Below, in pieces: positions 1 through 20,751 of a stretch of 64,000 nt of DNA (position 1 is its first letter; each line of letters begins with the position of its first letter). Source of the DNA: Escherichia coli (GTDB lineage Bacteria > Pseudomonadota > Gammaproteobacteria > Enterobacterales > Enterobacteriaceae); the NCBI RefSeq assembly GCF_003018255.1, contig NZ_CP027440.1, one strand, 5' to 3'. A model generated the notes under the pieces. The model was not told the DNA's origin, made no database searches, and was given only the letters and a program-made list of their open reading frames with translations. The position numbers and the translations under genes were made by a program.

Positions 1-225
1 GACAGTAATACTGCCTGGTTCAGCGTTGTCATCTCCAGTATCTAACCAACTCTGAACCAGCAATGGGTTATTGCCTTTATTTTCCAGACGCACATTGACG
101 CTTTTTTGTTCGCTTTTATAAACTACGCGTGTACCTGAAATTACGATGTCTGCAATAGCTGATGAGCTAAAAGCCATACAGCTCGCTAAGCACAATGCTG
201 CGGTATGTTTAGTATTAAAAAACAT
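1..225 (-). CDS. yadV: Fimbrial periplasmic chaperone (PapD-like), N-terminal 75 codons only; gene continues beyond the window start
   Basis: Hand translation of minus strand from ATG at 223-225: MFFNTKHTAALCLASCMAFSSSAIADIVISGTRVVYKSEQKSVNVRLENKGNNPLLVQSWLD...; signal peptide plus chaperone N-domain. Absent from ORF track because truncated by window edge. Confidence 0.8.
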   Translation of the reverse strand, partial: MFFNTKHTAALCLASCMAFSSSAIADIVISGTRVVYKSEQKSVNVRLENKGNNPLLVQSWLDTGDDNAEPGSITV

Positions 226-333
226 AAACCGTTCCTCACAGAGTTAATTAAAACAGGGAATAACGTTCAAAAATAAATATGTTTGATGTTATTCCCTATA
301 TATATTCACCCAATCAATTTAGGTGGCTGATAT

Positions 334-924
334 TTACTGGTAAGTAATGGTATATGCTGAGTTAGTTTTTACATAACCGGCAGTTGCTGCTTTGCTTGCA
401 TCAGCACGAACATAGGATGCTTTAAAATCGTAGGTTGCAGTTTTAGACGTTGCATCCAGAGTTTTGCTGTAAACATCACCCGGATTATTAACCTGAACCT
501 GCTTAATAGTGGAACCTTCAATATTATGCAGGGCAATATTCACACCATCAGATGGATTATTGATAGACATATCGTTATTCAGAGTACCTTTGCTATTGCT
601 AAAGAACACGGAACCGAAAGTCATTTTTGCAGTAGTACCCGGAGCCGGGTTAGCTTTGCTGCAGTCAATAGTAATGCTGAATGGCTTAGCTTTAGCACCT
701 ACGGTGGTATCCAGTACACCATCGGTGATTTCAGCAACAGTAGCGGTTTGCAGCAGGATCAAACCATCTTTGTTACCGCCATCAACACGAGCTTCACAGG
801 TGTTATCAACGACCAGGCCGCTAATATTTAACTGACCACCGTCCATATCGTTAGCAGCAAATGCAGTACCAGCAGCCATTGCCAACATAATACCAGACAG
901 CGCAAAACCTAATTTTTTAGACAT
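334..924 (-). CDS. yadN: Fimbrial major subunit-like protein (chaperone-usher pilin)
   Basis: ORF track 334..990 (-); start placed at internal ATG 922-924, giving signal peptide [23 protein letters not shown]; pilin-like C-terminus ...YTITYQ; first gene of the yad fimbrial operon. Confidence 0.85.
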
Positions 925-1099
925 AAAAATCCTTGAATAATATTCCATAGAGAGATAACCGCACCGCATGACGATAAGAGTCTGCTGCAATGCTGCGTAA
1001 CAAAATCGTTACTGTGTTAATGATGTTTGTCTGTTGTTTACCAACTATTACATTCATTCATCATCGGGATGGCTATTTTGCATAATGTGATAGCATATG

Positions 1100-1142
1100 C
1101 AATTTAATTTTACTAAAAATAAAAGTTAGTAAAATTAAATTT
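1100..1142. promoter_or_regulatory. Perfect 17-bp inverted repeat (caatttaattttactaa / ttagtaaaattaaattg, 9-nt spacer) in the AT-rich yadN upstream region; candidate regulator-binding site or hairpin
   Basis: Read directly from sequence; about 180 bp upstream of yadN start codon and about 145 bp downstream of folK stop. Confidence 0.35.
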
Positions 1143-1285
1143 GAAAGCTAAGAGGGATAGTGTATGGCGTGAGAATTACGGGAAGGTATATTATATTTTC
1201 TAAAATTTTATTTATCTTAATGATATTGTTTTGGCAATAACTTGAGGTTGTTTTCAGAATATATTTATATTCACACGAATAATAA

Positions 1286-1765
1286 TTACCACTTATCTAA
1301 TTCATTAAAGCCTTTTGCCTGTAGAGCTTCAACTAATGATAAGCCATCAGGAAATAGCAATTCCGGCGCAATTTCAAACAGTGGCCACAGCATAAAGCCG
1401 CGATTTTTCATATCGTAGTGCGGAACGGTCAGACGTTCGGTATTTATTACTTCATTACCAAACAGCATGATGTCGAGATCCAGCGTGCGCGGTCCCCAGC
1501 GTTCAGCTTTACGGACGCGACCTTGCTGCAATTCGATACGCTGTGTGTGATTGAGTAGCTCTTCAGGGGCAAGAGTGGTTTTCAGCGCGACGGCTGCATT
1601 TAAGTAATCGGGTTGATCTTGCGGCCCCAGCGGTGGGGTGCGGTAAAACGAAGAAACAGCAAGAATGCGGCTTTCTGGAATATCGCCTAATGCTTTCAGG
1701 GCAGCATTGACCTGCTCCAGCGGAGAGGCCAGATTGCTGCCGATGGCAATATACGCCACTGTCAT
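1286..1765 (-). CDS. folK: 2-amino-4-hydroxy-6-hydroxymethyldihydropteridine pyrophosphokinase (HPPK)
   Basis: ORF track 1286..1765 (-), 159 aa, [12 protein letters not shown]...; recognised HPPK sequence; start overlaps pcnB stop by 4 nt. Confidence 0.95.
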
Positions 1766-3159
1766 GCGGTACCCTCACGACGCGGTGCGCGTTTGCGTGG
1801 ACGACGAGTACGGCGACGCGGTGACGGTTCTTCATCCAGTTCGTTAAGCATCCCTTTTTGGTCTGGTGGCGCGGAAACCTGGAACTCACCCCACCATTTC
1901 ACCAGACGTTGCAGTTCAGCGTTACGCTCAACTTCGGCTCGTAAGGCCAACAGGTCGTATGCCGCACGGAACTTAGGATGCTCCAGCAGTTTCCAGGCGC
2001 GTTTACCCTGACGTCGGGACATACGCAACTGCAACTGCCAGATATCGCGGGTTAACGTCGTCAGACGTTTCGGGATCGCCAGTGAACGACAGGCTTCGTC
2101 CAGCACGTCGTTCATCGCCAGCGCGAAAGCGTCGTGATAGGTCAGGCCGCTTTCCTGGGCGATCTTCTGTGCCGTCTCCAGCAGTGGGTACCAGAACATG
2201 GCGGCAAACAGGAACGCCGGGTTCACGCGCATATCGTTATGGATACGCGTATCGGTATTCTTCAGCACCTGTTCAATGATCCGCTCCATCGGGCTGTCGC
2301 CATTTTCCGTGAAGTAGCGGGTAATGGTCGGGAACAGCGGCTGGAACAGGTGATATTCACACAGCAGCTTATAGGTTTCGTAACCGTAGCCCGCTTGCAG
2401 CAGTTTCAAAGATTCTTCAAACAGACGTGCCGGTGGAATATCGTTCAGCAGGGTAGCCAGGCGAGGGATCGGTTCTGCGGTTTCAGGACTGATACGCATA
2501 CCCAATTTGGCGGCAAAACGTACCGCGCGCAGCATCCGTACCGGATCTTCACGGTAGCGCGTTTCCGGGTTACCAATCAGACGGATAACGCCGTCCTTCA
2601 GATCCTTCATGCCGCCAACGTAATCACGGACGGTAAAATCTGCCACGCTGTAATACAGGCTGTTGATAGTGAAATCGCGGCGCTGGGCGTCTTCTTCGAT
2701 GGAGCCGAAAATGTTGTCGCGCAGCAACATGCCGTTTTGCCCGCGTTGGGAGGTCGTGCGGTCGCTGACGTTACCTTCGTGATGTCCACGGAAGGTCGCA
2801 ACTTCGATAATCTCCGGGCCAAACATCACATGAGCCAGACGGAAACGGCGACCCACCAGGCGGCAGTTACGGAACAGTTTACGTACCTGTTCAGGCGTGG
2901 CGTTAGTGGTTACGTCAAAATCTTTCGGCTTTTTGCCAAGTAACAGGTCGCGCACGCCACCGCCAACCAGCCAGGCTTCGTATCCCGCTTTATTGAGCCT
3001 GTACATTACCTTCAGGGCATTTTCACTGATATCTTTGCGGGAAATAGCATGCTGCTCACGCGGGATCACCGTCACCTGTGGACGGGCGACTGCCTGTTCA
3101 GCCTCGCTTTCCTCGCGGCTTAGCACCTTGCGGCAAAAATTAGCGACTCGGGTAAAAAT
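1762..3159 (-). CDS. pcnB: Poly(A) polymerase I
   Basis: ORF track 1762..3180 (-). Nucleotidyltransferase motifs ([10 protein letters not shown]...DFD). Start placed at the ATT codon 3157-3159 (IFTRVANF...), known to be the initiation codon in E. coli, giving 465 aa; the upstream TTG at 3178-3180 is the ORF-track alternative. Confidence 0.9.
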
Positions 3160-3218
3160 AGTACACCTCGGTAGTGTCAAACATCATTCAGGACAAAAAA
3201 ATAGCGGCTAATCATAGC

Positions 3219-4145
3219 TCAGCATGACGCATTTGAGAATGTTGAATTTACAATTGCCGACTCAGGCACGGCGGTAAGCCGCCAGTTTTTGACGGCTGAC
3301 TGAAGGATTTGCTCGACGCTGAAATCCTGCCAGTGTGCTTCTGCCTGCTGACCCAGAAATTGAAGTGCCGCGATTAGTACCGGGCGCGGATCGCCTTTCG
3401 GCAACGCAGGCGCATGATTCTGCTTGGAAAGTTTAGCGCCTTGTGTGTTAAGCGCCAGCGGTAAATGAATGTAATCTGGCACTTTCCAGCCAAAAAGCTG
3501 GTACAGCGAGATTTGCCGCACTGTCGGTTCGATCAAATCTGCCCCGCGGACAATTTCGCTCACGCCCTGGAAGTGATCATCCACCACCACCGCCAGGTTA
3601 TAGGCAAACAAACCATCACGGCGATGAATAATAAAATCTTCCCGCGCCAGTTTTTCGTTGGCGTGAATAATGCCGCGCAGCTGATCAGTAAATAGCGTGA
3701 CCGGATGCTGCTGGCGGATACGTACTGCGGCGTTGTCTGGTCCATGATGCAATTCCCGGCAATGACCGTCGTAAATACCGCCAATGCTTTGAATACGCGC
3801 GCGCGTGCAGGTGCAGTAATAACTTAGTCCTTGCTCATGTAACCAGGCGAGTGCTTCGCGATAGGCATCGTGACGTTGCGATTGCCAGAGAACGTCGCCG
3901 TCCCAGTGCAGACCGTAATGTTCCAGCTGGCGCAGGATAGTCTCTGCGGCACCGGGAACTTCACGAGGCGGGTCGATATCTTCAATGCGTACCAGCCAGC
4001 GACCTTGCCGGGCGCGAGCCTGTAAATAGCTGCCAAGCGCGGCAATCAGAGAGCCAAAATGAAGCTCGCCGGAAGGAGAGGGGGCAAAGCGGCCAATATA
4101 GTGTGTGTCTGTCATCTCGTTGAACAAAAAATAAGGCGGGAGCAT
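3219..4145 (-). CDS. gluQ: Glutamyl-queuosine tRNA(Asp) synthetase (truncated GluRS paralog)
   Basis: ORF track 3219..4145 (-), 308 aa; class I aaRS HIGH-type motif ([10 protein letters not shown]). Sits immediately downstream of dksA, as in E. coli. Confidence 0.88.
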
Positions 4146-20705: not shown

Positions 20706-20717
20706 TCTGTTGTTCAT

Positions 20718-20740
20718 GTGCCGGATAAACTATCCGGCAC
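20718..20740. terminator. Hairpin gtgccggata-aac-tatccggcac between convergent erpA and yadS
   Basis: Perfect 10-bp stem read from sequence; T-rich tract follows on plus strand. Confidence 0.45.
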
Positions 20741-20751
20741 ATCTTCTCTCT

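Follow-up and report, generated by a model that had tools for sequence, protein, structure and literature searches.

The perfect inverted repeat between folK and yadN in the Escherichia coli DNA analysed here is, we find, one lineage's form of a 41-bp quasi-palindrome that holds a fixed position in spacers of the yad type and has stayed self-complementary in the majority of E. coli lineages, though not in all. Its arms diverge more slowly than the sequence around them, and some of their differences between lineages fall on both partners of a pair, so that complementarity is kept. From these sequence comparisons, the element is probably a modest cis-acting hairpin or operator. Our preference, which we hold tentatively and would not yet call probable, is for a weakly selected hairpin carried in the sense transcript of the spacer, with the window lineage possessing its perfect copy (the window being the whole 64-kb stretch of DNA under study). 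The element is not described in the literature that we searched, where its kind is nonetheless familiar: a cis-acting inverted repeat or hairpin in the promoter region of an H-NS-silenced operon.

A perfect inverted repeat between folK and yadN

The window starts within yadV and then runs through yadN, the intergenic spacer, folK and pcnB, all on the minus strand (Table 1). Its YadN shares 86% amino-acid identity with the K-12 protein, and its folK 89% nucleotide identity with the K-12 gene. The repeat lies 177–217 bp upstream of the yadN ATG and 145–185 bp downstream of the folK stop codon, which bears out the earlier note in placing it about 180 bp upstream of yadN, in an AT-rich intergenic region of some 360 bp. 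Sequence identical to the window is present in about 78 of 5426 complete E. coli genomes, with mostly poultry isolates among the matches listed. One strain sharing the window's spacer, APEC O2-211 (L026 2700-2880), has a DDE_Tnp_1 transposase gene directly downstream of yadN, and its yad operon appears to be interrupted after the first gene. In E. coli AHM9C68I (L012 1090-1236), the interval from panB to folK holds an IS1 and lacks the yad genes; this strain keeps only the folK-proximal ~130 bp of the spacer, and the palindrome is thus deleted.

Table 1. Features of the folK-yadN region, in window coordinates; promoter-like elements are candidates
Feature	Position	Strand	Description
yadN-type major fimbrial subunit gene, first of the yad operon	334–924	−	RefSeq 'fimbrial protein' beside yadV in identical sequence
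folK-yadN intergenic spacer	925–1285	−	361 bp, 29.6% G+C; holds the yad regulatory region
Alternative promoter-like pair	1075–1102	−	−35 TTGCAT (1097–1102), 16-nt spacer, −10 CAAAAT (1075–1080)
Left arm of the repeat	1101–1116		AATTTAATTTTACTAA; downstream (3′) arm on the yadN/folK sense strand
Loop (spacer of the repeat)	1117–1125		AAATAAAAG, 9 nt
Right arm of the repeat	1126–1141		TTAGTAAAATTAAATT; upstream (5′) arm on the sense strand
C-rich, G-poor stretch just upstream of the hairpin	1141–1220	−	C 23%, G 6%; resembles a Rho utilisation (rut) site
Candidate −10	1190–1195	−	Perfect TATAAT; partly conserved block (nATAAT in most alleles)
folK, upstream gene, same strand	1286–1765	−	

All 16 bases of one arm pair with the other. 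The repeat had previously been described as a perfect 17-bp inverted repeat; it is indeed perfect and its gap is indeed 9 nt, but the arms measure 16 bp, since the next pair outward fails (C1100 against T1142). The letters at 1126–1143 are TTAGTAAAATTAAATTTG, and the right-arm string given earlier was one T short.

How unusual is a repeat of this length? Among perfect inverted repeats with spacers of up to 30 nt, it is the longest of the window, and the runner-up has arms of 12 bp. Arms in 3000 dinucleotide-preserving shuffles grew no longer than 13 bp for the folK-yadN spacer and 14 bp for its AT-rich core—none attained 16 bp—and the number of 16-bp repeats expected analytically in the core is ~4e-5. 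As it exceeds both its competitors in the window and the shuffled sequences, the repeat is real and not a by-product of AT-richness, and the view that its length is out of the ordinary was well founded. The second-longest repeat of the window, at 20716–20742, consists of 12-bp arms (ATGTGCCGGATA) around a 3-nt spacer, and its GCCGGAT core looks REP-type.

Several classes of element were considered and rejected. A repeat family of the REP/BIME, ERIC or MITE kind is rejected because the sequence is single copy per genome and per window: it occupies a median of one place per genome across 5426 genomes, and no other copy with up to three mismatches exists in the window. A scan of window positions 1–4000 against Rfam at a permissive threshold gave chance-level matches only, and the one Rfam 15 family overlapping the repeat was emrB-Lactobacillus, at 21.3 bits against a gathering threshold of 60.8 (E = 6.9). 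An invertible phase switch of the fimS type would involve a segment of hundreds of base pairs; here, the arms lie just 9 nt apart, and yad is reported not to be phase variable (PMC13245861).

A fixed 41-bp element in divergent alleles

The conservation check across E. coli that had been proposed for the palindrome was run on 12 distinct alleles, taken from RefSeq genomes, assemblies and metagenomes. Each of the 12 has a conserved CCATACAC block, from which the element is 27 nt away, and in each the element measures 41 bp, a total length that stays constant while the loop varies in sequence between lineages (Table 2). Wider sampling of alleles, through genome contigs, metagenomes and the exact FolK sequence, yielded the known classes plus one CE10-like loop variant. 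The approximate frequencies of the main classes among the 5426 genomes are 78 for the window type, ~770 for the B2 types, ~1180 for the K-12 type and ~1770 for the B1 type, the last being the commonest E. coli allele (~1768/5426).

Table 2. Alleles of the element and the predicted stability of the sense-strand hairpin. Sequences are given as upstream arm / loop / downstream arm on the strand that is sense for folK and yadN, with positions numbered along it from the outside of the stem inwards; pairs are counted in a common 16+9+16 frame
Allele	Element	Pairs formed	Predicted energy (kcal/mol)	z
Window	AATTTAATTTTACTAA / CTTTTATTT / TTAGTAAAATTAAATT (sense strand)	16/16	−12.0	about −5.7 to −6.0
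BY68	AATTTAAATTTACTTAA / CCCTGAT / TTAAGTAAATTTAAATT; perfect but different sequence	17/17	−13.3	−5.4
CE10		15/16	−11.8	−4.3
2022H048	Pair 3 is G-C; mismatch gained at pair 14	15/16	−11.4	−5.2
B2 (UTI89, CFT073-like)	Like window, G.A mismatch at pair 3	15/16	−9.8	−4.0
K-12 type	Perfect 11-bp inner stem, 3-nt loop	13/16	−8.5	−3.1
B1 type	Pair 12: both partners changed, to G.A	12/16	−4.9	−0.7
Type 3	Downstream arm without its distal half (10-nt deletion; TTAAGTGGAT...), upstream arm retained	Inner stem only	−3.8 to −4.8	about 0
E. fergusonii	Same loss as in type 3, upstream arm retained	Inner stem only	−2.7	about 0

The alleles are far apart from one another. Spacers of B2 strains are 81–84% identical to that of the window, and those of the K-12-like and B1 types are too divergent for a direct spacer search to detect. 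This extreme allelic divergence (examined over 700–1765 of the window), which covers the spacer (~53% identity between allele groups) and extends into folK, suggests old, recombining haplotypes around the yad operon.

The outcome of the conservation check was mixed. Yad-type alleles share the fixed 41-bp element, but the palindrome itself is degenerate in B1, in type 3 and in E. fergusonii, whose spacer is homologous to the yad-type spacer. Such degeneracy in relatives is part of what the earlier note had named as counting against a role, and any function must therefore be dispensable or lineage-specific. In E. albertii and in E. coli of the O157 type, this position is taken by another fimbrial operon and an unrelated spacer, and these spacers, being non-homologous, are uninformative as outgroups. 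The remnant ACTTAA..TTAGT followed by T8 in the O157-type spacer gave no stable fold.

Conserved arms and paired changes

Identity between allele groups amounts to 0.53 over the whole spacer, 0.76 in the arm that lies upstream on the sense strand (the right arm) and 0.47 in the loop. This right arm ranks third in conservation among the 16-mers of the spacer, and even E. fergusonii has kept it. When the two main allele groups are compared, the arms stand at 0.81 and 0.79 (left arm 0.79), while the spacer as a whole has 0.55 and the loop 0.46. Conservation peaks in a separate block of the spacer, at 1257–1272 (flanks 1251–1275), with 0.91 identity between groups and a presence extending to E. 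fergusonii. On the minus strand, this block begins 14 nt past the folK stop and reads as a small near-palindrome, GAATATA-AA-TATATTC, then TGAAAA; it is missing from the O157-type spacer.

Beyond being conserved, the arms have changed together. The differences between the window and BY68 fall on positions 8 and 15 in one arm and, in the other, on exactly the bases that pair with them, 9 and 2; were each arm of a perfect palindrome to receive two substitutions at random, it would remain perfect with a probability of 0.0015. A third covarying pair is T-A in the window, G.A in B2 and G-C in 2022H048. Altogether, five of the 16 pairs have changed on both sides, with pairs 3, 8 and 15 being the ones relied on here. 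Neutral divergence at the rate of the spacer would leave ~6 of the 16 pairs intact, with a probability of 6.5e-4 of keeping at least 13, and the alleles of groups 1 and 2 keep 12–16. Across the 12 aligned alleles, standard pairs make up 82.3% of cells, a level that none of 500 shuffles attained, and the covariation score of 0.197 was equalled or exceeded in three of 500; if the partners are slid by one column, pairing falls to 52–55%. These shuffle controls overstate the significance, because the 12 alleles are related, and the constraint is only partial, with uncompensated mismatches outnumbering compensated pairs across alleles.

Taken together, the fixed position and length, the conserved arms and the paired changes support the reading of the 41 bp as a constrained cis element of the yad regulatory region. 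The paired substitutions in addition favour base pairing, or templated correction of one arm by the other, over a plain protein operator. The earlier note had raised three options for the repeat without committing itself: an operator, an H-NS site or an RNA hairpin. Its interpretation is partly supported, in that the paired changes speak for a base-pairing element, and the sequence comparisons confirm no one mechanism.

A predicted hairpin on the sense strand

What might a constrained quasi-palindrome do at this site? When the sense strand of the spacer is folded in silico, the hairpin is the dominant structure, and on its own it has an energy of −12.0 kcal/mol in the window allele (Table 2). 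As folK and yadN are encoded on one strand, a hairpin RNA would sit in the folK 3′ UTR, in the yadN leader, or in both. Its 16-bp stem, almost all A-U, would fold as RNA on the folK/yadN sense strand and would serve as a transcript-end or stability element. In such a position, it could limit or mark read-through from pcnB-folK into the H-NS-silenced yad operon; alternatively, it could stabilise a long yadN leader. Transcription across the repeat, the importance of its RNA rather than its DNA form and the role just outlined are what we infer from the excess over chance, the pairing pattern and the sequence around the hairpin.

Two further observations concern the sense strand. In every allele, the flank upstream of the hairpin is rich in C and poor in G (C 20–33%, G 5–10%), and in none of the spacer types scanned is folK followed by a canonical intrinsic terminator. 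Moreover, the inner-stem changes in type 3 and E. fergusonii leave G.U pairs on the sense strand and C.A mismatches on the other strand, a hint as to the strand that rests on just two or three events. A mapped transcription start or 3′ end for the spacer was not found in the accessible papers and supplementary files, the SMRT-Cappable-seq supplements make no mention of folK, pcnB or yadN, and neither the palindrome nor start-site mapping features in PMC13245861, PMC3661553 or PMC5797941 (a text search of the first for 'palindrom' or 'inverted repeat' returned nothing).

Several features speak against a hairpin. The fold is unstable in the commonest allele, B1, as well as in type 3 and E. fergusonii; only one pair of the stem is G-C, an unusual composition for an RNA structure with a function; and the sequence folds equally well on both strands and as DNA. 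Finally, the upstream arm is conserved where its partner is deleted, which suggests a role at the level of sequence, independent of pairing.

Promoter-like signals and candidate regulators

The position of the element relative to a yadN transcript depends on which promoter is used. With the TATAAT at 1190–1195, the hairpin would lie at about +42 to +82 in a leader of ~259 nt; with the alternative pair at 1075–1102, the palindrome would fall at about −36 to −76. Both are candidates only. The second arrangement, TTGnnn/16/CA(C/A)AAT, is conserved in position in B2, CE10, K-12, B1 and BY68. A scan with position weight matrices gave many weak promoter-like candidates in every allele, none of them clearly best, and a consensus scan at the tool's threshold called no minus-strand promoter in the yad-type spacers of the window and K-12. 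The palindrome holds promoter-like sequences of its own (1109–1136): a −35 TTTACT and a −10 TAAAAT, 15 nt apart, which owing to the symmetry of the repeat read on both strands. Such a symmetric, bidirectional promoter-like arrangement is typical of promoter islands. Between the palindrome and yadN, at 1015–1063, lie two more conserved blocks, TGATGAATGAATGTAA and ACAAACATCATTAACA on the sense strand, with 0.73–0.74 identity between groups; these may be the real yadN promoter or regulator sites.

That the repeat is a DNA operator, at which a dimeric or tetrameric regulator or a nucleoid protein (an H-NS antagonist, ArcA, SlyA or H-NS itself) would occupy symmetric half-sites and control the yadN promoter, is possible, if in our judgement doubtful. 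The arms are conserved in sequence around a spacer that varies in sequence and is constant in length, and the arm lying upstream on the sense strand survives in E. fergusonii and type 3, where the other is truncated. The element also abuts the TTGnnn/16/CAnAAT pair, and the −36 to −76 interval is a usual position for a regulator. The serum response of yad persists in an hns mutant, and a serum-sensing H-NS antagonist has been proposed (PMC13245861); ArcA is implicated in K-12 yad regulation by work that the same paper cites. H-NS binding at yadN is reported in three K-12 data sets, and overproduction of SlyA raises yadN 2.4-fold (PMC5797941). The evidence for H-NS documents the region as a whole rather than the palindrome site (PMC5797941, PMC13245861).

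Against an operator stand the matched changes in both half-sites, which are unexpected in that two non-consensus half-sites do not restore binding. Nor does any consensus at the palindrome beat shuffled controls: in scans for ArcA, SlyA, the H-NS motif, Lrp, Fur, IHF, CRP and FNR, all scores were reached by shuffled spacers. The high-affinity nucleation motif of H-NS is 10 bp long, TCGATAAATT; each arm matches it at 7 of 10 positions, which 299 of 300 shuffles equalled. The ArcA box (GTTAATTAAATGTTA, direct TGTTA repeats at 11-bp spacing) was rejected, with a best match of 11–12/15 that 185 of 300 shuffles equalled and a repeat that here is inverted, as was the SlyA/MarR operator (TTAGCAAGCTAA or TTA-N6-TAA), for which the arms give TTA-N7-TAA and the best match inside the repeat is 8–9/12. 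Directly abutting the right arm, at 1140–1151, TTTGAAAGCTAA matches the SlyA sequence TTAGCAAGCTAA at 10/12; it occurs in the window lineage only, and 20 of 300 shuffles did as well. In addition, the window holds no further occurrence of the motif, neither yadN nor folK is named in the supplementary text of the ArcA ChIP work that was searched, and LmiA does not bind the (non-homologous) O157 yadN promoter. The papers on LmiA and C.Csp231I both name yadN, and neither bears on the palindrome site. Likewise, yadN is among the promoters of the Reg-Seq preprint, whose text reports nothing on it.

The paired changes that weigh against an operator have another possible source. Hairpin-templated correction, by template switching, is an established mechanism for E. 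coli quasi-palindromes. We considered whether the element might be a neutral, AT-rich quasi-palindrome that replication errors of this kind have repeatedly perfected, its arms being conserved only through overlapping promoter-island signals, and regard this as rather unlikely. Arm-to-arm correction would account for both the paired changes and the existence of two different perfect versions. The palindrome decays freely in B1, K-12, type 3 and E. fergusonii, B1 has changed both partners of one pair without restoring pairing, and the perfect form occurs in just ~78 of 5426 genomes. The K-12 yadN/folK spacer is, moreover, listed as an H-NS-associated 'promoter island' (PMC3661553), in keeping with the many weak promoter-like candidates per allele. 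Templated correction does not, however, lower the substitution rate, and yet identity is 0.79–0.81 in the arms, 0.55 in the spacer and 0.46 in the loop. Mismatched states persist in large clades (B2, ~770 genomes; K-12 type, ~1180), so correction is not fast here, and position and length are fixed across very divergent alleles.

Pairing could also matter in a conditional manner. It is conceivable, if improbable, that the AT-only palindrome is a selected switch, dependent on temperature or supercoiling and taking the form of an RNA hairpin or a cruciform, that sits at the border between pcnB-folK and the silenced yad operon and gates transcription or the spread of H-NS filaments into yad. Were this so, the perfect, mismatched and lost alleles would set lineage-specific thresholds for yad in the APEC-associated window type, B2 and B1. 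In its DNA form, as a cruciform or melting element coupling yad silencing to supercoiling, temperature or oxygen, we judge the idea decidedly improbable. For either strand as single-stranded DNA, the predicted folding energy is about −10.8 to −10.9 kcal/mol (z near −6), the arms are nearly pure A/T, and selection appears to act on complementarity. In K-12, yad expression is said to respond to temperature and oxygen, according to work cited in PMC13245861. Against a cruciform, the element is lost in common alleles, and its loop is long: a 9-nt spacer disfavours extrusion relative to palindromes with short spacers.

Least probable, and very unlikely in our view, is a Rho-independent terminator of the pcnB-folK transcript: the hairpin is the sole strong one downstream of folK on the sense strand, and the 11-bp inner stem of the K-12 type is followed by UUUAAUUUGUU, yet this tail counts as U-rich only when the stem is restricted to those inner 11 bp, one pair of 16 in the stem is G-C, the window allele is without a U-tract (the bases after the stem are GCAUAUGC, the continuation on the sense strand being GCAUAUGCUAUC), 145 nt separate the folK stop codon from the hairpin, and a scan requiring at least three G-C pairs found no terminator in the window, K-12 or O157-type spacers.

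Implications for yad control

Yad fimbriae are serum-induced and aid the colonisation of tissue by extraintestinal and avian pathogenic E. coli, and repression by H-NS is the only control of yad established so far. In ExPEC, H-NS lowers the activity of the yad promoter more than 100-fold and the promoter responds to serum, and the authors of that 2026 study state that the factor counteracting H-NS at yad is unknown (PMC13245861). A constrained 41-bp element within a very divergent promoter region is an obvious place to seek such control. The natural perfect, mismatched and lost alleles provide ready-made variants for asking how yad escapes silencing by H-NS. And if the element should prove neutral, it would represent a clean natural case of a quasi-palindrome kept complementary by paired changes.

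Relation to known systems

The element shares features with several known systems and departs from each. As in the hotspots of template switching in E. coli, we see an imperfect inverted repeat with a short spacer and allele changes that create or preserve complementarity; unlike there, the yad arms change at a lower rate than the sequence around them and large clades keep mismatched alleles, neither of which a purely mutational process would predict. The symmetric operators of winged-helix or response-regulator proteins such as SlyA and ArcA at H-NS-silenced promoters resemble it in being AT-rich and in its placement as a symmetric element upstream of a silenced fimbrial operon. They differ in layout, with CTAA-N9-TTAG here in place of the TTAG-N4-CTAA of SlyA, and with direct repeats in the case of ArcA. 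Promoter islands silenced by H-NS (PMC3661553) are the nearest in location, the locus being the same: an AT-rich region, bound and repressed by H-NS, with overlapping weak promoter-like signals. Such islands are, however, defined by the density of promoter sites, whereas here a single 41-bp quasi-palindrome sits at a fixed position and shows paired substitutions. With regard to the hairpin that we tentatively favour, the arrangement is reminiscent of the protective stem-loops at Rho-terminated 3′ ends (Dar and Sorek 2018, PMC6061677), in which a hairpin likewise follows a C-rich, G-poor stretch in place of an intrinsic terminator; the yad stem differs from these in being almost all A-U and missing in common alleles, and any Rho dependence of folK is putative.
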